A DNA stretch of 64,000 nucleotides from an uncultured Chloroflexia bacterium (GCA_963707345.1 CAVPPE010000002.1:1015028-1079027); one strand, 5' to 3'. Shown: positions 20,965 to 36,731, counted from the stretch's first letter. Numbers and translations are program-made. Notes: generated by a model from the sequence alone, not told the origin.

Positions 20965-22722
20965 GTGGCAAAACGCGAATTCACCATCGAAGACGAGTAT
21001 CAATACAGCCGCTCCGGCCCAGTCCGCTGGATAGTGTCCCACCTGCGCCGCTACCCAATCTTTCCCTTGCTGGTGATTGCGGTTGCCGTGCTGAACAACT
21101 ACTTCTACAGCTTGATCCAGATCTTTATCGGCCGGGCGTTTGACCTCATCACCTCCCCCGATTGGCAGGCGGCCGCCCTATTGAGCATCGCCCTCGGCGC
21201 GCTGGGGGCCGCGGCCGGGCAAGGTCTCACCGGCCTGGTGCGCAACTATGCCACCGAGTTTGTGGCTCAGCGCGTGGAGCGGGACTCGCGCGACGAGCTG
21301 TACCTCAGCCTGTTGGGCAAGAGCCAGACCTTTCACGGCCGGCAGCGCATCGGCGACATCATGGCCCGCGCCACCAACGACGTGCGGCAACTCAACTACA
21401 TGTTCAGCCCTGGCATTATGCTCATCGTCGACTCGCTGATGGCGATTGTCGTGCCTATCGCACTGATCGGTCAACTCAATCTCCAGCTTTTGTTGGTCCC
21501 GGGCGTTTTCATCGTGCTGCTGATCATCACTGTGGCGGACTATAACCGGCGGCTCAGCCCGGTCAGCCAGGCCCAGCGCGAGCAGTTTGGCGTGATGAAC
21601 GCCGGCCTGGCGGAGGCCATCGCTGGCATCGAGGTGGTCAAGGCCAACGCCCGGAGCGGTACGAGTGGCACAAATTCACCCAGGATGCCCGCCTGTTCCG
21701 CGACTATTTTGTGCGCCAGGGGGAAATCCAGGCCATGTACTTGCCGATGCTGGTGTTCAGCGTTGCCTGGGCCGGCGCTTTCTTGCACAGCATGATTCTT
21801 TGGCGGGCCGGCACGTTGACCCTGGGAGAGGTGGTGGCCTTTATGGGCTTGATGGGCACGCTGCGCTTTCCCACCTTTATCTCCATCTTTACCTTTAATC
21901 TGGTCCAGTTGGGCGTCGCCAGCGCGCGCCGCATCCTGGAGTTGATCAACACCGAGACCGAGCTGGACGAGAATCAGGAAGGGGTTACCCAGCCGATTCG
22001 CGGCGAAGTTAGCGTTCGAAGACGTCAGCTTTGGCTACAACGGCAACTCGGTGCTAAAAGACATCAGCTTTACCGCCCGGCCGGGCGAGACCATCGCCAT
22101 CGTTGGCCAGACCGGGTCGGGCAAGACCACCCTCACCCGCCTCATCAACCGCATCTTCGACGCCGACAGCGGCCGGGTGCTGGTGGACGGCGTGGACGTG
22201 CGCGATTGGAGCCTGGAATCCCTGCGTTCGCAGATTTCGACCATCGAGCAGGACGTCTTTCTCTTCTCCCGCACCCTGGCCGAGAACATCGCCTTTGGCT
22301 GCAACGACGCGAACCAATCGGGCATCGAACGGGCGGCGCGCGAGGCCCAGGCGCACGAGTTTATCACCGGCTTTACCGAAGGCTACGAGACCGAGGTCGG
22401 CGAGCGCGGCGTGACGCTCTCGGGCGGACAGCGGCAGCGGATCGCCATCGCCCGCGCCTTTCTCACCGACCCGCGCATCCTGATTCTGGACGACAGCACC
22501 AGCGCCATCGACAGCGCGACCGAAGACCAGATCCAGCGGGCGATGCGGCGCATCAGCAGCCAGCGCACTACTTTCCTCATCACCCACCGACTGAGCCAGA
22601 TTCGCTGGGCGGACCGCATCCTGGTGTTGCGCCGTGGCGAACTGGTGGACCAGGGCACACACGAAGAGCTGCTGGCGCGCAGCGAGGACTACCGGCGGAT
22701 CTTTACACGCTACGATAGTTGA
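20965..22722 (+). CDS. ABC exporter, fused permease-ATPase (half of a heterodimer pair); two apparent frameshifts near 21652 and 22011
   Basis: Three ORFs (20965.., 21711.., 22051..) together form one MsbA/MdlB-type protein. TMD followed by Walker [24 protein letters not shown]. The first break fits a lost G in gcccgg(g)agcgg. Confidence 0.8.
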
Positions 22723-22769
22723 CAGGCCGTGAAAGGCACTCACCCGCATTACGATTGAATTAGGCAAGT

Positions 22770-24613
22770 ATGGGCTTTATCCTGGACGGCCTCGACACCG
22801 AGGCATACGACCGCAATTACAGCGACCGCGAACTGCTGGCCCGCATGTTGAGCTACTTCCGGCCGCACACCGGCAAGATGGCCCTGGTAGCGGTGATGAT
22901 TGCGCTCAACTCGGCGGCCGGGACCGGCGGCCCCATCCTCATCTCCAGCGCGATTGACCTGTTGGCAGAAAACCCCAGCACCCAGGCGATTTTGCTGATG
23001 GCCGGCGGGATCCTGTTGCTGGGTGCGGCCGCCTGGCTGTTCAACTTTATCCGTCAGTTTGTTTCCGCCCGCGTGGTGGGCGACGTGGTGCTCAAGCTGC
23101 GCGAGGACGTCTTTGACGCCACCATCGGCCACGACCTCTCGTTTTACGACGAACACCCGTCCGGCAAGATCGTCAGCCGGGTCACCTCCGACACGCAAGA
23201 TTTCGCCCAGGTCGCCACGCTGATTATGAACCTGCTCAGCCAGGTGCTGCTGGTGGTGATCCTCTCCGTGTGGCTGGTCGGGATCAACGTACTGCTGACC
23301 TTTCTGCTGCTGGCAATGACGCCGGTCGCGGTGGCCATCGCCCTCAGCTTTCGCAAGGTCGCCCGCCGCGTCACGCTCAACGCCCGCCGCGTGACCGCCA
23401 AGATCAATGCGCAAATCCAGGAATCGATCAGCGGCATCATGGTCGCCAAGAGCTTTCGGCAGGAACGGGCCATCTACGACGATTTCGACGCCAACAACAA
23501 ACAGGCGTACCGGGTGGGCCTGCGGCGCGGGCTGACGCTCATGCACCATCTTTCCGGTCATGGGGCTCTCGTCCGGGCTGGGGGTGGCGCTGCTGATCTA
23601 CGCTGGCGGCCTGACGACGCGGGATGGACTGGTGAGCCCGGGCAACTGGTATCTGTTTATGCAGGCGGTGGGCTTTTACTGGTGGCCGCTGATGAACATC
23701 GCTTCGTTTTGGAGCCAGTTTCAGGACGGGCTCTCGGCCGCCGAGCGAGTCTTTGCGCTGATCGACGCCGAGCCCAAGGTGCGCCAGACGGCAGCCGAAC
23801 CGGTGGAACTCGCTGCGAGGCCGGATCGAATTTCGCCAGATGGCCTTTGGCTACAACGAGGACGAAGTGGTGCTGCCGGACCTGACGCTGCACATCCGGC
23901 CGAAGGAAACCGTGGCATTGGTGGGGCACACCGGCGCGGGCAAAAGCAGCATCGCCCGGCTGATCACCCGCTTTTACGAGTTCCAGGGTGGCGAATTGCT
24001 GGTCGACGGCCGGGATATGCGGCGGCTGGACCTGACCGAGTATCGCCAGCACATCGGGCTGGTGCCCCAGGAGCCGTTCCTCTTTTCGGGCACGGTGCTG
24101 GACAATATCCGCTACGGCCGGCCGGAGGCCGGCGACGACGAGGTCTGCCGGGCAGCCGAGCAGATCAGCAACGGCGACTGGCTGGCCGACCTGCCGGCCG
24201 GGCTGGACACCGACGTCGGCGAGCGCGGCGCCAGCCTCTCCATGGGGCAGCGGCAACTGGTGGCGCTGGCGCGGGTGCTGCTCAAAGACCCGGCCATCTT
24301 TATCCTCGACGAGGCTACCGCCAGCGTGGACCCCTTCACGGAAACGCAAATCCAGGAGGGTCTGGATACGATGATGCGCGATCGGACGGCCATCGTCATC
24401 GCGCACCGCCTGTCGACCGTCAAGCACGCCGACCGGATCATTGTGATGGACCACGGCCGGATCATCGAAGAGGGAACACACGAGTCGCTGCTGGCGGCCG
24501 GCGGCCACTATGCCGAGCTTTACAACACCTACTTCCGCCACCAGTCGCTGGACTACCGGCCGTGGCAAGAGGACGCCGACACGCGCACGCGGGCGGCCGC
24601 GATCGCCGACTAG
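22770..24613 (+). CDS. ABC exporter, fused permease-ATPase (partner half); two apparent frameshifts near 23541 and 23811
   Basis: ORFs 22770.., 23560.. and 23840.. together form one protein. Walker A GHTGAGKSS, LSMGQRQL, IFILDEAT. Confidence 0.8.
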
Positions 24614-24731
24614 TCCGCGCATCCCCCAACCCCAAGACGGACCGGGTATTCAGCCAGAAGGATGCCCGCGCGACGAGAGGCTGGTATAATCGGCGCATCC
24701 TGCAGCGCCCATCAGGGCAAAGGATGGATCG

Positions 24732-25223
24732 ATGAGCGAAGGATGGATCTTTCAGATTAACGTCTCACCGGGGGGTGTGCCCAAGCTGCCGGTGGCGCGG
24801 GCGGGCATCACCCCGGACGGCGTGGAGGGGGACAAACAGCGAAACACCAAATACCACGGCGGCCGGGACCGCGCCGTCTGCCTGTATTCGCTGGAGCGCA
24901 TCCTGGCCCTGCAATCCAAAGGGCACCCCATCTATCCCGGCGCTACCGGCGAAAACGTCACCATCGCGGGGCTGGACTGGGAATTGCTAGAGCCCGGCAC
25001 TCGCCTCCGGCTGGGGGATGGCGTGCTATTGGAGATCACCAGCTACACCACCCCTTGCAGCCACATCACTGATGCGTTTGCCGATGGCCAATCCGGCCGG
25101 CTGGCCCAGCAGCAAAATCCCGGCTGGTCGCGGCTCTACGCCCGCGTGTTGGAACCGGGGCAGGTTCAAATTGGGAGCCGGTTGACGGTCCTGAGTCCGG
25201 CCGGCGAGGAGGTAATGCCATGA
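24732..25223 (+). CDS. MOSC-domain protein
   Basis: Beta-barrel MOSC pattern (GVEGD...HGG..RAV.LYS, GENVT, conserved C in TTPCSHI). Confidence 0.75.
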   Translation: MSEGWIFQINVSPGGVPKLPVARAGITPDGVEGDKQRNTKYHGGRDRAVCLYSLERILALQSKGHPIYPGATGENVTIAGLDWELLEPGTRLRLGDGVLLEITSYTTPCSHITDAFADGQSGRLAQQQNPGWSRLYARVLEPGQVQIGSRLTVLSPAGEEVMP

Positions 25224-27762: not shown

Positions 27763-28836
27763 CTATTCCAGATCGGCCAACTGGTCCTGCAATTGTGAGA
27801 GCTCGGTCCGCACCTCGGCCAACTTGCGCTCCGTTGCCGCCACAGCTTCAGTGGCCTCGGCGTAGCGCCGCTCCGCTTCCTTCAATTCCTGCTGCTGCTG
27901 TGCCAGACTCGCTTCCAGGTCTGCAACCTTACTCTCGGCCTGGTCAATCCCCAACAGCAATTTGGCCATTTGCTGTTTCAAGCGCTGTTCGCGCAGTTCA
28001 ACGTTGCGCCGAAGCGCCACCAGCCGGCTGTGAGCCTCCTGGCAATCCGGGTTGTGGAACAGGCACTCCTGCAAAGCCCGGATGCGATCCGGGTCAGACG
28101 GAAGGTTAAACGCATACCAGAGCCACGCGGCTTCGTTGCGCGGGTTGACTTTGATGACCTGCGCCAGCAGCGTCATCGCCTCCACGCGATTACCGGCGCG
28201 CGAGGCTTTGATGGCCCGGTTCAGCTTTTCCAGTGTAGGATCTGGTTTTTTGGGCGCAACGCGGACCTCGGCCGGGTCCGCCGCGGCCGTCTCGCCGAAA
28301 CCAGCCGGCCAACCAGGGCCATCGGCGGCCGGGGGTCTCTGTTGGCTGGACCAGCTACCCAACTTGACGGTGGGAGCCGTCACCCCGCCAGCCCAATCGA
28401 TGCCGCTGCGGGGAGTCTGTGCCATCAGGAGCCCTTCCAGGTCGATGTCCATGCCCTCGATTCCGGCCCAATCGCCACCCAACGGGATTGGGCTTTCCGC
28501 CTCCACCGGCTCTGCATAGTCGGTCGGTTCCCCTTCGTCCTCCAGCACAACGTCGATTACGCCGGCCGACATCGCCGCCGGCGAGGCCACGACCTGAAAA
28601 CCGAGTTGCTGGAAAATGGTCCTGGCGCGCTCGCCTTGGGCAAACCCGCCGATTCTCCCATCGGTCATCAATTGCAGAATCCGGCCGGGTGGATAGAGCC
28701 GGCCGTCGCGCTGGATGGCATACTTGCGCCACTGGCCGCTATCAAACTGCGGCCGTTCCTCCTGGTCAAAGCGCGCCATCGCTTGAATGACCTGCTCGTC
28801 AGTCAAGGTTTGTTCGCCAATCGTCAGTCGTCTCAT
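27763..28836 (-). CDS. Hypothetical protein: small N-terminal domain, low-complexity linker, TPR-like segment, C-terminal coiled coil
   Basis: 357-aa ORF. N-terminal ...WRKYAIQRDGRLYPPGRILQLM...GERARTIFQQLGFQVV. C-terminal heptad-rich region LKQQMAKLL...LSQLQDQLADLE. Confidence 0.6.
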   Translation of the reverse strand: MRRLTIGEQTLTDEQVIQAMARFDQEERPQFDSGQWRKYAIQRDGRLYPPGRILQLMTDGRIGGFAQGERARTIFQQLGFQVVASPAAMSAGVIDVVLEDEGEPTDYAEPVEAESPIPLGGDWAGIEGMDIDLEGLLMAQTPRSGIDWAGGVTAPTVKLGSWSSQQRPPAADGPGWPAGFGETAAADPAEVRVAPKKPDPTLEKLNRAIKASRAGNRVEAMTLLAQVIKVNPRNEAAWLWYAFNLPSDPDRIRALQECLFHNPDCQEAHSRLVALRRNVELREQRLKQQMAKLLLGIDQAESKVADLEASLAQQQQELKEAERRYAEATEAVAATERKLAEVRTELSQLQDQLADLE

Positions 28837-29053
28837 CGCTTCCCTCTAGCTCCCAACCAGATTCAGCAGATTGTACACTCTCTTGTAACCTGTGCAAATG
28901 GCGTACCAGGTTACAGTGGCCCGCCGCCCACGGCTACACCTCGCCCGGCCGGCTCCACCAGCCTGGGGCCCATCTCTTCCACCTTTCCAAACGGCTACCT
29001 GCCACACAGACAGTATAAGCCCATTTTCGTCTAATATCAAGCCACCGGCCGCC

Positions 29054-29082
29054 TTGATTACTAGGATAAAAGTCAGTATACT
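29054..29082 (+). promoter_or_regulatory. Sigma-70-like promoter for the metallophosphoesterase cassette
   Basis: TTGATT (29054-29059), 17-nt spacer, TATACT (29077-29082). The -10 box lies inside the 10-bp palindrome cagtatactg (29074-29083). Confidence 0.4.
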
Positions 29083-29219
29083 GTAGTCAAGCTGCCGCTT
29101 TCCTATGGACCGCGCGAACTGAGGCACAATCCACTCCCTACCCTTCCCCGGCCGGCAGTGAGTGGCCCGTTTTGCATTGAGACCTGCTGACGCAGGCAAG
29201 TTGCCAAAGGAGGAACCGC

Positions 29220-30647
29220 ATGTTGGTATTGATTAGCGACCTGCACTTTGTGGACAGCACGGCCGGCGCACACAACCTGCCTCCGGCCGCGTTCAAAAGC
29301 GTTTTTCTGTCCGACGTAGTTGCGCTGGCCAAGGACAAGCGGGCAGCCGAACTGAAACTGGTGCTGCTGGGCGACATCTTTGACCTGGTGCGCTCGCAAC
29401 AGTGGTTTCAGGAGAAGCCAGAGGACCGACCGTGGGGCCAGCACGGTCTGCTGGACGTGCCCACCCCCCGCGCGAACAGCGCCACCGAGCGACGCTGCCT
29501 GCGCATCCTGGGCGAGCTCCCGGCCGACGGCCGGCGCGACTCGGTTCCGCCAGACACCATCCTGTACCAGAACTGGGAGACCTTTGCCTTCTTTCGCGAA
29601 CTGCCCGATATTATGCGGCGCAAGCTGCGGCGCAACATCCCGGTCGAGATCATTTACGTGGTGGGCAACCACGACCGGTTGTGCAACCTCTACCCATCAG
29701 TGCGGGACGCGTTGCGCCAGATTGCCGGGCTGGCCATCAACGAGCGGACGGTAGACGGTGACCCGGCCGGCGAGTGGTGGTACCGCTACCTGTTCACCGA
29801 CGAGGCCTACAATGTGATGGCACGTCACGGGCACCAGTTCGACGTCACCTGCTTTGGCGGTGGCAACGACCTGACCCGGCCGGGCCACCTGCAGTGCACG
29901 GTGGGAGATGCCATCACCACCGAGTTTGCCGTGGGACTCGCCTGGCAACTCGACCAACTACGCCCCAAGTATTCGGTCATCACCGACGAACTGGTCCACC
30001 GCATCCAGGAAGTGGACAACGTCCGGCCGATGCAGCGCATCATGGAGTGGTTCCACTACCAGATCAAGAACGAGGGCAGCCGCCAGGTGCGCCAGGCGCT
30101 GGATGAGACCTTTGATGCGGTGGTGAATAACCTGCTCAACCTCAATTTTGTGCAGCAATGGCGCAGCCCAGACACTTATCTGGACGAACTGGTCCGCGCA
30201 GCAAGCAGCCCATGGCTGCGCTGGATTCCCACCAAGTTGATGGAAATCACCGATACCAGTTCGCTGCTGCCGCTGCTCCTGCCGGCGGTGGAGCGCTTTG
30301 CGGAGGGCGGCGACGAGATGGACCGCTACACCGAGGGAGCCTATCACGAGCGGGGCTGGCGGGAGAATCGGGACATCCGCTTTGTGATTTACGGCCACAC
30401 CCACCGGCCGGTCATCACCCCGCTGGACGGCCGGGGCGGCCGCGAAGTGCTCTACCTCAACACCGGCACCTGGCGAGCCCGCATCCAGCGCACGGTCCCG
30501 CTGGACAAGTCGGCCGATTTCATCAAGCTCAAGCAGATGACCTTCCTGGCCTTTTACCATGCCAAGGAAGATATGGACAACAAGCAACCGGGCACGGTCA
30601 GCTTTGACGTCTGGACCGGCCACAAGCAAAAGTATTACACCGACTAG
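29220..30647 (+). CDS. Calcineurin-like metallophosphoesterase with a large insertion (475 aa)
   Basis: Motifs in canonical order: ISDLHF, LLGDIFD, VVGNHD, ARHGHQFD, IYGHTHRP. AAGGAGG lies upstream of the ATG. Confidence 0.8.
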   Translation: MLVLISDLHFVDSTAGAHNLPPAAFKSVFLSDVVALAKDKRAAELKLVLLGDIFDLVRSQQWFQEKPEDRPWGQHGLLDVPTPRANSATERRCLRILGELPADGRRDSVPPDTILYQNWETFAFFRELPDIMRRKLRRNIPVEIIYVVGNHDRLCNLYPSVRDALRQIAGLAINERTVDGDPAGEWWYRYLFTDEAYNVMARHGHQFDVTCFGGGNDLTRPGHLQCTVGDAITTEFAVGLAWQLDQLRPKYSVITDELVHRIQEVDNVRPMQRIMEWFHYQIKNEGSRQVRQALDETFDAVVNNLLNLNFVQQWRSPDTYLDELVRAASSPWLRWIPTKLMEITDTSSLLPLLLPAVERFAEGGDEMDRYTEGAYHERGWRENRDIRFVIYGHTHRPVITPLDGRGGREVLYLNTGTWRARIQRTVPLDKSADFIKLKQMTFLAFYHAKEDMDNKQPGTVSFDVWTGHKQKYYTD

Positions 30648-30670
30648 CCCCGCAATCAGGAGACCAGACC

Positions 30671-31774
30671 ATGAGCCATCAATTAACCGGCCGCATTCTT
30701 TACGCCAGCGGCAGCCCGGCCGCCAACGTGCGCGTGCGCGTGTTTGATCAGGACGCACCGGGCAAGATCGACGACGATTTGACTGTGGAGGAGGGGCTTT
30801 CCGATGCCGAGGGACAGTTCACCGTGCGCTTTGCCCCCTCCAAATACCTGGATTGGCGCGAGGTGACCACCCGCGAACCGCGCAACCTGCCATTTGACTG
30901 GACGCTGGAGACGCGCACGCGCCGCCTGCCCGACCTGACCGACCTCTACCTACCCTACCTGCGGTTTGATTACGCCATTGCCAATCGCCCGCGCACCCAC
31001 AGAACCTTTCTGCAGCCGTTCCAGCGCAAATTTCGCCTGCCGGAGTTGCCGCCCAGTGCGTTCCTGCCGTCCCAGCATGGCTTCAAGTTCGTCAACCGGT
31101 TCAAGGGGTACTTCATCCCCTTTTCCGTGCCCGCCATCCCGGATATCCCCAGCGTGACCAACATCTATGGTTTGTGCGGCGGGATGGTGGCGTCGGCCTA
31201 TGACTTTTTGCTCGCCGGCCGGGAGATTCCGGCCGGTGACAAAGCGCCCAAGCGGGCCTCGCCGTTGCACCAGTACATCTACCGGCGGCAGAACGACAGC
31301 TTTGGACCATTGGGAGACCAGATTGTGCGCTTTGCCCGCTGGATGGCGCTCCCGGACGATACCATGCACGGGACCCAGCGCAAGACCCACGACGAATTTG
31401 AGCAACTGCGCGCCAGCCTGGATGACGGCAACCCCTCTCCCATTGGCCTGGTTTACGTCAGCACCGAGGACACGCTAGAAATCTGGAAGAACCACCAGGT
31501 GCTGGCTTATGGTTACACCGAGCGCGAGGACGGGACGCTGGACGTGCACATTTATGACCCCAACTATCCCCTGCGGGATGACGTCACGGTCCAGTGTGCA
31601 CGCGTTCCGCTGGGCAGCCAGTTCGTGCCGGGCCTGCCCCCGCGTGTGACCACCCAGCATGGCTTCAAGTGCGTGCAGCGGTTGGGCGGCCAGAAACACA
31701 AGGATGTGCGCGGCTTTTTCGCCATGCCGTACGTGGCGGTCGAGCCGCCGGCCGGATCGGAAGCGGACGCGTAG
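30671..31774 (+). CDS. Hypothetical protein: N-terminal transthyretin/CarboxypepD_reg-like beta-sandwich plus C-terminal putative papain-like Cys-His-Asp domain
   Basis: N-terminal GRILYASGSPAANVRVRVFDQD...DAEGQF. C-terminal IYGLCGGM (Cys), NHQVLAYGY (His), VHIYDPNYP (Asp). The residue order and spacing resemble C39/phytochelatin-synthase-like folds. 23 nt after the upstream gene. Confidence 0.55.
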   Translation: MSHQLTGRILYASGSPAANVRVRVFDQDAPGKIDDDLTVEEGLSDAEGQFTVRFAPSKYLDWREVTTREPRNLPFDWTLETRTRRLPDLTDLYLPYLRFDYAIANRPRTHRTFLQPFQRKFRLPELPPSAFLPSQHGFKFVNRFKGYFIPFSVPAIPDIPSVTNIYGLCGGMVASAYDFLLAGREIPAGDKAPKRASPLHQYIYRRQNDSFGPLGDQIVRFARWMALPDDTMHGTQRKTHDEFEQLRASLDDGNPSPIGLVYVSTEDTLEIWKNHQVLAYGYTEREDGTLDVHIYDPNYPLRDDVTVQCARVPLGSQFVPGLPPRVTTQHGFKCVQRLGGQKHKDVRGFFAMPYVAVEPPAGSEADA

Positions 31775-31824: not shown

Positions 31825-33715
31825 TCAGACGCTAGAGGCCTGCGCTATGGGATCGCCGACCTGATCCAGCGCTTCTTTGACTCGCTTGGTCTGCCGGCCG
31901 CGTTCCTGCTTGTCCAGAATGCGTTTGCGGATGCGCAAGCTGTCCGGAGTTGCTTCCAGCAGTTCATCATCATCCAGATACTCGATACACTCATCCAAGC
32001 TCATATCGCGCGGCGTCGTCAGCCGGACCTCGATGTCCCGGATCACGCTGCGCATATTGGTGAGATGCTTGGTCTTGCACACGTTGACGTCCAGGTCGCC
32101 CGGCCGCTGGTGCTCGCCCACCACCATCCCCTGGTAAACCTCGGTCCCCGGGCCAATAAACAGCATGCCCCGTTCCTCGGCGTTTTTCAACCCAAACGTG
32201 GAAGCCGTGCCCGCCTCCCAGGCGACCAATGATCCGCGCGACCGGGAGCCAATCGCGCCGGCCACGGGCCCGTACTGGTAGAAAAGCGTGTTCACGATGC
32301 CCAGGCCGCGGGTGGCGGTCAAAAATTGGTGGCGAAAACCCAACAGCCCACGGGTGGGCACGTGGTAGGTGACCAGAACGCTGCCATCGGAGGCGTTGAT
32401 CATGTCGATCATCTCGCCGCGCCGCTTGCCCAGCATCTCCACCACGGTGCCAACCGTGTCAGCGGGAGTCTGGATAAACAGCTCTTCGTATGGCTCCAGG
32501 ATCTCGCCGGCCGCCCCTGTTCGCAAAATCACCTTGGGACGAGATACCTGGAACTCGTAGCCTTCACGACGCATGGTCTCGATCAGGATGGCGAGGTGCA
32601 ATTCGCCCCGGCCGGAGACGGTAAACGTATCGGCCTGGTCAGTCTCCTCAACCTGCAAGGAAACGTTGTGCCGCAGTTCATCAAACAGGCGCTCGCGCAA
32701 CTTGCGCGAGGTGCCCCAACGGCCCTCCCGGCCGGCAATAGGCGAAGTGTTGACCCCAAAGCTCATGCGCACGGTGGGTTCTTCCACCTTGATGGATGGC
32801 AGGGCGGTTGGATTTTCGGGGTCGGCCAGAAGTCTCGCCAATGGCAACCTCCTCCAACCCGGCAATGGCCACAATCTCACCCGCCTCGGCCGCCGGGACC
32901 TCGACTCTCCCCAACCCCTCGTGAACGTAGAGGTAGCGGGCACTCTCCGCTATCTGTTCGCCCTTCAGGGTCAGGCGAGCAAGGGGTTGACCGGCCGTGA
33001 TCCGCCCGGCAAAAACCCGGCCGATGGCCGTCAGGCCACGGTAACTATCATAATCCAACGTGGTCACCAGCATCTGCAGAGGCGCATCGATCTCTACCCT
33101 GGGGCACGGAATCCTGCGCAAAATGGCATCAAAGAGCGGCTTGAGGTCCGGACCCAGCTCGGGCGTTAGACCGGCCTGGCCGGTGGTCGCCACCGCGTAG
33201 ACAATACCAAAGTCAGCCTGCTCATCGGTTGCCCCCAGTTCAACAAACAGATCAAAGGTTTCGTTCAGCACTCGCACCGGATCAGCGTTCCTGCGGTCCA
33301 CTTTGTTGATCACCACAATAGCGCGGTGACCCAGTTCCAACGCTTTGCGGAGCACAAAGCGGGTCTGGGGCATGGGGCCTTCGGCCGCGTCTACCAGCAG
33401 CAACACGCCATCCACCATGTTGAGTACCCGCTCCACCTCGCCACCAAAGTCGGCGTGGCCGGGGGTATCCACAACGTTGATCTTGACCCGCTGGTCCGTC
33501 TCGGCGTCGTAGATGCTGATGGCCGTGTTTTTTGCCAGGATGGTAATTCCGCGCTCCCGTTCCAGGTCATTGGAATCCAGCACCCGCTCAGCCACCTGCT
33601 GGTTGCTGCGGAAGACGTGGGCCTGTTTTAGCAGGCCATCCACCAGCGTCGTTTTGCCATGGTCTACGTGCGCAATAATAGCAACATTGCGCAAATCGGT
33701 TCGTTCAACGAGCAT
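31825..33715 (-). CDS. typA: Translational GTPase TypA/BipA; one apparent frameshift near 32830
   Basis: [25 protein letters not shown]. ORFs 32681..33715 and 31825..32943 join as ...AIGET|[11 protein letters not shown] if one extra T in acttctg is removed. Confidence 0.92.
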
Positions 33716-35270: not shown

Positions 35271-36731
35271 GTAACTGTTCAGGTTTAGGATAAGGAAGTT
35301 GATGGCGGGGCGGTCGCGGGTGGGTGCCGCAACGCATTCAAGCACTGGAGAAAGGGATTCTGGTCGCGGGCGGCCCAGGTGCTAAACAGACTGGCGAGGG
35401 TGAGACGTGTTTTGGTCCCCTCATCACTGCGGGAGCCGCCGCTTATCTTGCGAATGACCACCAATGGACGAAGGCTGCGTTCCGCCAGGTTGTTGTCTGC
35501 TGGCAAATTGGGCACGAGAACAAACTGGAATAACTCAACTTGATGCCGCATGATGCGCTTGGCCAACGCACAGCACGGGTGTTCATAGCTCAAGGCGTAC
35601 TGCCTGCCCAGGACACCGGCTCGCGTGAAAAGGTCTTCGTATTCAACCTGACGCTCTTGGGGGGTGGCCGCGGGGTGTTCTTTCAGCCAGCTTTGGGCAT
35701 CGTCATACAGCTTGCGCACCCCCTTCGCCCACGTCACTACCTCGGCCGTCCCCGCATGGGTTTCCTTGAGTTCGTGCAGGTCTCGCAACAAATGGGCCCA
35801 ACAGCGTTGGTGCTGGCAAAGGATCAGGTTGGTTGCGGCGTAAAAGTCCGTCACCAAGTGCCCATCGAAATCGTCCCCCAAGATGCGCTTGGCCACTTGA
35901 TGCCCTCGGCTCTGATCACGCTCAAAATAGCGCACCGCTTCCGGTCCATCCGTCACCAATGCCCAGATGTAACCGTTCTGCCCATCCTCCCGCCACCCCG
36001 TTTCGTCGCCGTGCACCACCTTGCCGGCCTGCATTTCTGCCTTCAGCCCGTCTGCTTTGCTCTGCAATTGCTTCCGTGCTGCGTGGGTCAGCTCGACGAT
36101 CTCCCCTACCCCCAACCGCAAGTGGTGCATTGTCTCTCAATACGCCTGCACCTGCCGCACCGGCAGCCGGAGCGTCGTCCGCAAGTACGCTACCAAACTC
36201 GCTATCCGCACTCCTATCCGCCTTTGCCCGATCACCTGACCGCTCAAGTCCAACTTTGGACTGCGCCATCCCTCGCAATGGGGACACCAGCGCTTGATCA
36301 CCTGGTGCTCGATCACCTCTACCGGCTGTGGCTCGGGGATCTCGATCACCTGACGCGTGTAATCCACACTCTCGCCACGCAAGCGGTAATGGCAGTCTGG
36401 GCAGTTATCCAAGGCATGCCGCTCAATTCGGGTTGCTTCTTCACGCTTGCGCGACCGATTGTGCTTCGCTGCTCGTTTCTTGCGCGGCTTGGGTGGATCT
36501 GTGCGGGGAGGTCGATTCCGTTTGACAAACGGAGGCAGCTTTTTCTTTTGCTGCTCCAATTCGGCAATCCGCGTCGTTGCTGCCTGCAACTGGTTCGTCA
36601 ATTGAACCACCTGCTGCTGCAATGCAATCACCTCGCTGTGCAGCTTCTTGTTCTCAGCAAGGATCGCCTCAATCTCTTCCTCGGTCACGGCGGCAAGTCT
36701 AACACATTCCGGGGTAACTGTGAACAGTTAC
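35271..36731 (-). mobile_element. IS66-family insertion sequence, single-ORF (ISBst12-like) type, 1461 bp
   Basis: 11-bp perfect terminal inverted repeats gtaactgttca (35271-35281 and the reverse complement of 36721-36731). Perfect 8-bp direct repeat gtctgaac on both sides (35263-35270, 36732-36739). Confidence 0.8.
35285..36688 (-). pseudogene. IS66-family transposase interrupted by an in-frame TGA (36139-36137)
   Basis: ORFs 36137..36688 (leucine zipper, zinc-finger CPDC...CPHC) and 35285..36130 (DDE core) are in the same frame: ...VRQVQAY*ETMHHLRLGVGEIVEL. Confidence 0.8.

Follow-up and report, generated by a model that had tools for sequence, protein, structure and literature searches.

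Among the described systems closest to the gene pair considered here, LpxH (UDP-2,3-diacylglucosamine diphosphatase, itself a calcineurin-like metallophosphoesterase) has a lid, much shorter than ~185 amino acids (aa), that is inserted between motifs IV and V and holds the acyl chains, and the cyclic oligonucleotide-based antiphage signaling systems (CBASS) are known to exchange their effectors. Exo enzymes associated with CBASS have also been described (bioRxiv 10.1101/2025.03.04.641389). The pair lies in a 64,000-nucleotide stretch of DNA from an uncultured Chloroflexia bacterium (GCA_963707345.1, CAVPPE010000002.1:1015028-1079027), the whole of which is called the window here. Its first gene encodes MPE-A, a metallophosphoesterase (MPE) with a large insert, and its second encodes P2, which combines a transthyretin-like (TTR) N-terminal domain with a C-terminal domain carrying a candidate Cys-His-Asp triad. 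The original prediction, made from this DNA alone, had suggested that the two genes could be a coupled phosphoesterase/thiol-enzyme pair, one not recognized as a described system, and neither protein matches PADLOC and NCBIfam gives no equivalog. We consider the most valuable result of this study to be the definition of an unannotated Cys-His-Asp family, together with a clade of that family in which partner enzymes are swapped.

Candidate esterase partners of P2

The clade that contains the window's P2 was taken from a quick neighbor-joining tree without support values, and four of its member loci have gene context. At all four (4/4), an esterase gene is located directly upstream of P2 on the same strand, at a distance of -4 to 52 nt. 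More specifically, MPE-A precedes P2 by 23 nt in the window, a second phosphoesterase (MPE-B) precedes it by 52 nt in L173 (P2 71% identical to that of the window) and by 28 nt in L090 (66% identity), and a CapV-like patatin gene overlaps P2 by 4 nt in L174 (69% identity), an overlap that suggests translational coupling. MPE-B is a 374-aa protein with a hydrophobic N-terminal segment and has only the GHTHRP motif in common with MPE-A; it is predicted to be membrane-anchored and is unrelated to MPE-A. With the NCBIfam model of the cyclic GMP-AMP (cGAMP)-activated CBASS phospholipase, for which the cutoff is 200, the 328-aa patatin of L174 reaches 195.7 bits, and it matches the PADLOC phospholipase effector model at E=1.3e-65. 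The genes downstream of P2 are common to L090 and L174, which therefore represent one orthologous locus with different enzymes in its upstream slot. Throughout 1.2 Mb of sequence flanking 88 P2 loci, the full MPE signature occurs in two open reading frames (ORFs) only, both immediately upstream of P2 and on the same strand. Three unrelated esterases swapping 5' of P2 within one clade provide a concrete and testable hint of a modular two-enzyme unit.

We hypothesize that the window carries a lineage-specific operon in which a membrane- or envelope-directed thiol hydrolase is joined by an interchangeable phospho- or lipid-esterase. This is the most likely explanation, and we place its probability at roughly 0.4. 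The beta-sandwich of P2 would dock on the membrane or on an envelope surface, and the substrate of the Cys-His-Asp site would be a lipid, or a molecule linked to one, on which it would cleave or transfer a group attached by an amide, ester, or thioester bond. The esterase expressed together with P2 would take the phosphate-linked or acyl part off the substrate of P2, and one such esterase could be interchanged for another.

Several observations weigh against this explanation. The 87 P2 loci came from other assemblies as well as from 80 GTDB species, and the upstream sequence exceeds 1.5 kb at 75 of them; more than 1.15 kb of downstream sequence is present at 54 of the 83 MPE-A loci. No MPE-A homologue was found by tblastn at the usable P2 loci (0/75), and a search with hidden Markov models (HMMs) found no P2 domain at the usable MPE-A loci (0/54). 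Clustering of neighboring genes revealed no conserved neighbor in either family. No neighbor of P2 is present at more than 23 of 88 loci, and those that recur, which resemble UvrA, GlnA, and AlaS in their sequence motifs, reflect clade synteny; no true neighbor of MPE-A is present at more than 6 of 84, the larger clusters being composed of ORFs that overlap the MPE gene itself. Outside the clade, the genes upstream of P2 are heterogeneous (RecD2, ClpC-like, short-chain dehydrogenase/reductase, AraC, LarA, and glycosidases), and the esterase-partner pattern itself comprises four loci and about three independent events. With regard to the protein, P2 has no signal peptide and many of its distant homologues are secreted, the lipid-binding role of its N-terminal domain is drawn by analogy only, and a significant papain-fold match was absent from all profile and structure searches (Pfam, PDB, and BFVD). 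Finally, the fusion of one family member to a VanY D-Ala-D-Ala carboxypeptidase domain (E=1.1e-25) points to peptidoglycan and not to lipid.

The original prediction depended on the two genes co-occurring in other genomes, and the exact pair was seen at none of the usable loci on either side. A conserved MPE-A plus P2 cassette was accordingly rejected, as neither gene has a constant partner. In its exact form the cassette is not conserved as a system; MPE-A and P2 represent two large uncharacterized families, each normally solitary, and P2 stands alone amid housekeeping genes in most genomes. What survives of the predicted coupling is the presence of some esterase directly upstream of P2 in the window's own clade. 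The two sister lineages with known context have no esterase partner: a gene for a PKD-repeat protein lies 294 nt away in L088, and L175 and L005 have a divergent GEVED gene.

The main rival to the esterase-partner explanation is chance adjacency, in which MPE-A and P2 would be independent, stand-alone enzymes, perhaps on one transcript, and the upstream esterases of the relatives would fill a variable accessory-gene slot beside a stable gene. We regard this as a serious, if tentative, possibility. It is favored by the overwhelmingly solitary occurrence of both families, with no conserved neighbor and no second instance of the exact pair at the 75 and 54 usable loci, and by a window of uniform GC content in which the surroundings are housekeeping genes that do not recur near either family. 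The genes downstream of P2 in L090 and L174, which encode a DEDDh exonuclease and a 436-aa protein, also look like a core-genome setting. However, chance adjacency must contend with three esterase families in an equally tight, co-directional slot in all four sampled clade members, with the absence of MPE-like ORFs from the rest of the 1.2 Mb of P2 flanks, and with the translational coupling suggested by the patatin/P2 overlap. If the partner hint were only chance, the locus would be an ordinary pair of uncharacterized hydrolases.

Domains of P2 and MPE-A

A confident full-length AlphaFold2 model of P2, built on a 25-sequence alignment, contains two domains, with a predicted local distance difference test score (pLDDT) of 88.9 and a predicted template-modeling score (pTM) of 0.80. 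Foldseek matches the model to transthyretin and intradiol-dioxygenase sandwiches with probabilities of 0.9-0.99. Among the 25 family members scanned, 18 match TTR-52 and 12 match CarboxypepD_reg (best E=2e-5), and the window protein itself scores 21.5 bits, below the Pfam cutoff of 32.3. The N-terminal domain carries an acidic cluster (D26, D28, D34, and D35) that is invariant in the 25 close homologues. The top Foldseek match of the full model is the Cyanothece lipoxygenase 5ek8 (E=1.9e-6), in a full-length alignment with a template-modeling score (TM-score) of only 0.18. The P2 family profile likewise aligns residues 5-70 with residues 55-120 of 5ek8 at E=0.0074, which is the sole match below E=0.01 in the PDB sequence searches with both window proteins. 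By analogy to eukaryotic lipoxygenases, residues 55-120 of 5ek8 would be a beta-barrel with a putative membrane-binding role. The PLAT family gave no match to the P2 N-terminal domain. Matches of P2 residues 61-82 to FCP/Lhcr9 cover a short, low-information stretch and were treated as chance.

The C-terminal domain carries the motifs IYGLCGGM (C169), NHQVLAYGY (H275), and VHIYDPNYP (D296). C169 and H275 are invariant in 25 close and 107 distant homologues, and D296 is at least 90% conserved in both sets. In the alignment of the 107 diverse members, in which mean column identity is 15%, the only invariant positions are F140, N142, C169, G170, G171, P193, N274, H275, and Q276. The domain also has an extra invariant motif toward its N-terminal side, F-x-P-S-x-H-G-F-x-F-x-N-x-F. 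When modeled alone, it reaches a pLDDT of 86.6 and a pTM of 0.85. Secondary structure assigned to the P2 model with DSSP places C169 at the start of helix 169-182, H275 at the start of strand 275-284, and D296 after strand 290-295, with ~105 residues and four helices separating C169 from H275. In the model, the Cys, His, and Asp positions match the layout of papain-fold thiol hydrolases and acyltransferases.

Database searches with the C-terminal domain found no match in Pfam, NCBIfam, PADLOC, or the PDB sequences, the last including a PDB profile search. The only papain-clan Pfam families to surface were BtrH_N (5 of 132 member scans, best E=0.005) and Peptidase_C39_2 (2 of 132, best E=0.048); all of these matches are below the cutoffs, and the window P2 itself has none. 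In a Foldseek search of the PDB, the best match (E=0.081, probability 0.77) is the C-terminal domain of the Bacteroides type VI secretion system effector BtaeB (9jdd_A), and papain-fold enzymes are scattered through the list at E-values of 0.4-1.7. A BFVD search gave a best E-value of 0.05, and the match of highest probability was mycobacteriophage Lysin A (0.63). Because the profile and structure matches are all non-significant, we infer the papain-like assignment, and the reading of P2 as a papain-like Cys-His-Asp hydrolase is well-motivated but unproven. The transthyretin/CarboxypepD_reg N-terminus and the ordered Cys-His-Asp set of the original prediction are thus borne out. Its C39/BtrH-type papain fold is suggested by the model layout and by the weak surfacing of BtrH_N and Peptidase_C39_2, but not by a significant structural match.

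The family defined by the C-terminal domain is large. An exhaustive profile search returned 2,425 clusters at 50% identity with E<=1e-3, and 1,672 with E<=1e-10. The family is found in bacteria, on the plasmid of at least one archaeon, and on a few contigs assigned to viruses. Its members are labeled 'hypothetical' in every source, and a name and a substrate for the family would allow thousands of 'hypothetical proteins' to be annotated. Signal peptides or lipoprotein boxes are present in many of the stand-alone members; the TTR-fused clade, which includes the window P2, has no export signal. Among the fusions, one C-terminal domain forms the C-terminus of a 1,328-aa protein with multiple transmembrane segments. 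On an IMG/VR contig (L178 5377-6711), a 444-aa protein joins a P2-type Cys-His-Asp domain to an N-terminal domain that, among PDB entries, best matches Cry34Ab1 of the aegerolysin type (4jox, E=0.037). A plasmid of Haloferax larsenii (NZ_CP078064, L180 2763-5708) encodes a 981-aa protein that ends in a P2-type domain (36% identity), and the family therefore extends to Archaea. Taken together, the TTR sandwich, the aegerolysin-like, VanY, and multi-transmembrane fusions, and the lipoprotein signals point to a putative membrane or envelope target.

Two of these fusion genes have neighbors worth recording. The gene for the L178 protein adjoins an ORF that resembles, as judged by eye, a phage-type integrase. 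The VanY fusion belongs to a tight same-strand array (L171 451-6561, gaps of 18-43 nt) with genes for HEAT-repeat, PhoD-type phosphatase, and beta-lactamase-like proteins, an array that looks like a battery of envelope-directed enzymes.

The VanY fusion (E=1.1e-25), the signal peptides or lipoboxes of many family members, and the weak best structural matches (9jdd_A, Tse1, and mycobacteriophage Lysin A) would also suit an NlpC/P60- or CHAP-like amidase or endopeptidase that acts on the stem peptides of peptidoglycan. If P2 were such an enzyme, the phosphoesterase would be irrelevant or would act on teichoic-acid or lipid-carrier phosphodiesters. However, neither the window P2 nor the rest of the TTR-fused clade has an export signal, the structural matches are all non-significant, no fusion to a cell-wall-binding domain (LysM, SH3, or PG_binding) was found among the members examined, and no cell-wall genes were found in P2 neighborhoods. 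We consider a peptidoglycan role unlikely.

Under the preferred explanation, in which an esterase is the partner of P2, MPE-A would supply the phosphoesterase activity. Its Pfam Metallophos (PF00149) match, at 24.5 bits, exceeds the cutoff of 21.5 (E=4.3e-5), and many of its homologues have a precomputed PF00149 match. The motifs DLHF, GDIFD, GNHD, GHQFD, and GHTHRP are present in order, and the metal ligands D7, H9, D52, N150, H151, H203/H205, H393, and H395 are invariant in an alignment of 25 homologues with 48-64% identity. Gene 1 encodes a true calcineurin-type metallophosphoesterase with an intact metal site, predicted to be cytoplasmic and to hold two metal ions. No signal peptide or transmembrane segment was found in it. 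The insert, or cap, separates motif IV (GHQFD, aa 204-208) from motif V (GHTHRP, aa 392-397); it is conserved in its own right, with 13 invariant positions in the same alignment, and matches no Pfam or other family. Both the complete set of metal motifs and the large insert that could not be placed were already part of the original prediction, and both hold. A similarity of the cap to YmcA/RicA (E=0.026, over helical segments) was treated as chance. The family as a whole accounts for 1,326 matches among 8,000 candidates scored.

The only named similarities of MPE-A are weak ones to LpxH models and structures, and JGI labels its homologues 'LpxH'. True LpxH identity was rejected: the match to NCBIfam PRK05340 reaches 16.1 bits, far below the 134 required of an equivalog, TIGR01854 scores 11.8 bits against a cutoff of 190, and the LpxH model matches span only the motif V region. 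The match to the LpxH structure 5wly is weak (E=0.5), and MPE-A has no significant match among the PDB sequences. No lipid A genes were seen among the scanned ORFs of the window between 20 and 39 kb or near MPE-A homologues.

The question of defense

By analogy with CBASS, the locus could be viewed as a new abortive-infection or defense module, in which P2 would stay constant, as a sensor or as a protease that activates its partner, and the esterase upstream of it would be a swappable toxic effector. Non-homologous enzymes do swap at a fixed position, the L174 partner falls just short of equivalog status for the cGAMP-activated CBASS phospholipase (195.7 bits vs 200), and a gene immediately downstream of P2 encodes a DEDDh (Rv2179c-like) exonuclease in both L090 (7229-7786) and L174 (2517-3056). 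The L090 exonuclease gives a full-length match to 'Effector: Exonuclease' of PADLOC at E=9.1e-65, with no CBASS cyclase nearby. A gene for a caspase-TIR fusion upstream of a P2 homologue in L027 would also fit a defense role. This gene (226-1548), which encodes a Peptidase_C14-type caspase, lies 116 nt upstream on the same strand and matches the PADLOC caspase and PDC-S66 models.

The evidence on the other side makes a defense module distinctly improbable. No family in PADLOC-DB v2 matched MPE-A or P2 at E<=1, and none matched MPE-B or the L174 P2 orthologue at E<=0.01. No CBASS-type nucleotidyltransferase (CD-NTase) or other signal-generating enzyme was found in the window or detected in L090 and L174, and no other sensor was found. 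The next gene in L090 (7803-9113) and L174 (3108-3794) encodes the 436-aa protein, which has a GS-x11-DxD nucleotidyltransferase-like motif; it matches no Pfam, NCBIfam, or PADLOC family and no cyclase model. Its homologues, in Chloroflexota, number more than 6,000, with identities of 71-100% for the 120 best listed. One of them, P0460, appears to be present on the window's own contig, outside the window. As such, we regard the 436-aa protein as the product of a highly conserved core gene. Because it is a core gene, the CBASS reading of L090 and L174 is weak, and a CBASS-like operon at these loci was downgraded. The original prediction had proposed looking for a defense-island setting elsewhere, and at the window such an island was ruled out by the housekeeping neighbors, the uniform GC content, and the lack of PADLOC matches to the pair. 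P2, for its part, is mostly found alone among housekeeping genes.

A related proposal would make P2-type proteins the constant part of a new two-gene membrane-attacking module with an exchangeable toxic esterase, be it an LpxH-like MPE, a membrane-anchored MPE, or a CapV-like patatin. P2 would sense a trigger and activate or cooperate with its partner, for example in abortive infection or programmed lysis. We hold this to be a long shot.

Locus layout and comparison with known systems

The coordinates of the pair and of its predicted signals are collected in Table 1. Both ORFs, their 23-nt spacing, and all motifs quoted in the original prediction were recovered at their positions, as were the promoter with its -10 box inside a palindrome, here a consensus match, and the perfect inverted repeat farther upstream.

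Table 1. Features of the MPE-A/P2 locus, in window coordinates
Feature	Coordinates	Strand	Details
Gene 1 (MPE-A) ORF	29220-30647	+	475 aa; ORF scan
MPE-A insert ('cap')	29835..30392	+	~185 aa, aa 206-391; between motifs IV and V
Gene 2 (P2) ORF	30671-31774	+	367 aa; ORF scan
P2 N-terminal domain	30671..31021	+	aa 1-117; transthyretin-like beta-sandwich
P2 C-terminal catalytic-type domain	31022..31774	+	aa 118-367 plus stop codon, ~240 aa
Candidate triad codon, C169	31175-31177	+
Candidate triad codon, H275	31493-31495	+
Candidate triad codon, D296	31556-31558	+
Shine-Dalgarno, gene 1	29206-29213	+	AAAGGAGG, 6 nt 5' of ATG
Shine-Dalgarno, gene 2	30658-30662	+	AGGAG, 8 nt 5' of ATG
Sigma-70-like promoter match	29054-29082	+	TTGATT-17-TATACT; 9/12 positions, consensus match only
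10-bp palindrome	29074-29083		CAGTATACTG, enclosing the predicted -10 hexamer
Perfect 9-bp inverted repeat	28884-28892 / 28907-28915	unassigned	TGTAACCTG-N14-CAGGTTACA; 100% complementary

The gap between the two genes follows the TAG of gene 1, and a terminator scan found no terminator-like site within it; gene 1 and gene 2 are probably co-transcribed. An identical two-gene arrangement with equal spacing is present on a 4,148-bp contig of run ERR12037370. The 383-bp divergent spacer 5' of gene 1 is more AT-rich than its surroundings and contains four promoter-like sites on both strands, compared with 0.8 +/- 0.8 in shuffled sequences. The minus-strand sites overlap the 29054-29082 site and face the divergent gene at 27763-28836. 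By a rough estimate, ~0.08 inverted repeats of 9 bp would be expected by chance in a spacer taken as 396 nt; the observed one could be an operator or a hairpin in the 5' untranslated region. The spacer signals would fit promoters that point in opposite directions, one toward gene 1 and one toward the 357-aa gene at 27763-28836 (-), and all of the upstream signals are consensus matches, not evidence of function. An Rfam scan of the whole window found no RNA family.

The pair is surrounded by housekeeping genes (YigZ, DinB, TypA/BipA, a DEAD-box helicase, and an M19 dipeptidase), and GC content stays at ~0.62 throughout the window. None of the neighboring genes of the window recurs near P2 or MPE-A family loci. 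The divergent 357-aa protein has an N-terminal region without assignment, a TPR segment, and, toward its C-terminus, a long coiled coil, and no homologue of it was found near any P2 or MPE-A locus. The typA/bipA gene is split on the minus strand into overlapping ORFs at 32681-33715 (N-terminal part, with GTPase motifs) and 31825-32943 (C-terminal part), which suggests a frameshift or an indel error of the assembly (31825-33715). Two ABC exporter genes on the plus strand appear to be split in the same manner (20965-21795 / 21711-22718 and 22770-23885 / 23560-24735), with Pfam matches to the membrane halves only, and the split at 20965-24735 may be a similar indel artifact. An ORF for an IS66-family DDE transposase (281 aa, profile positions 36-283 of 284) is located 3.5 kb from the pair at 35285-36130 (-).

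Compared with known systems, MPE-A resembles LpxH in having all of the MPE metal-binding motifs, with GHTHRP as motif V, and in the site of its large insert, which falls between motifs IV and V as the lid of LpxH does. It differs in that its insert of ~185 aa has no detectable similarity to that lid, and in that its family occurs in Chloroflexota, Desulfobacterota, and uncultured sediment lineages and metagenomes. P2 shares with papain clan CA (C39, Peptidase_C39_2, and BtrH_N) the order Cys, His, Asp and, in the model, a Cys at a helix N-terminus, a His at a strand start, and an Asp in a 'DP' motif after the next strand, whereas the ~105-residue, four-helix Cys-His spacer and the extra N-terminal motif set it apart. 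The NlpC/P60-type effectors and lysins (Tse1, BtaeB 9jdd, and Lysin A) are the best, non-significant Foldseek neighbors of the C-terminal domain, and the P2 family does include a VanY fusion and secreted homologues. However, these matches have E-values of 0.08-1.2 and TM-scores of 0.18-0.34, the window P2 lacks an export signal, and there is no evident small gene of the immunity type. The N-terminal domain of P2 aligns with the N-terminal region of CspLOX1 (5ek8) both by profile and by Foldseek, but it has no PLAT match and, in the window protein, falls below the Pfam cutoffs. CBASS with CapV and a DEDDh 'Exo' differ from these loci in several respects: no CD-NTase was detected in L090 or L174, the patatin does not quite reach its equivalog cutoff, the 436-aa protein downstream is encoded by a core gene, and the CapV- and Exo-like genes are not in the window. 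Nevertheless, L174 has the patatin directly 5' of P2 and the DEDDh exonuclease 3' of it, an arrangement that resembles CBASS of this kind.

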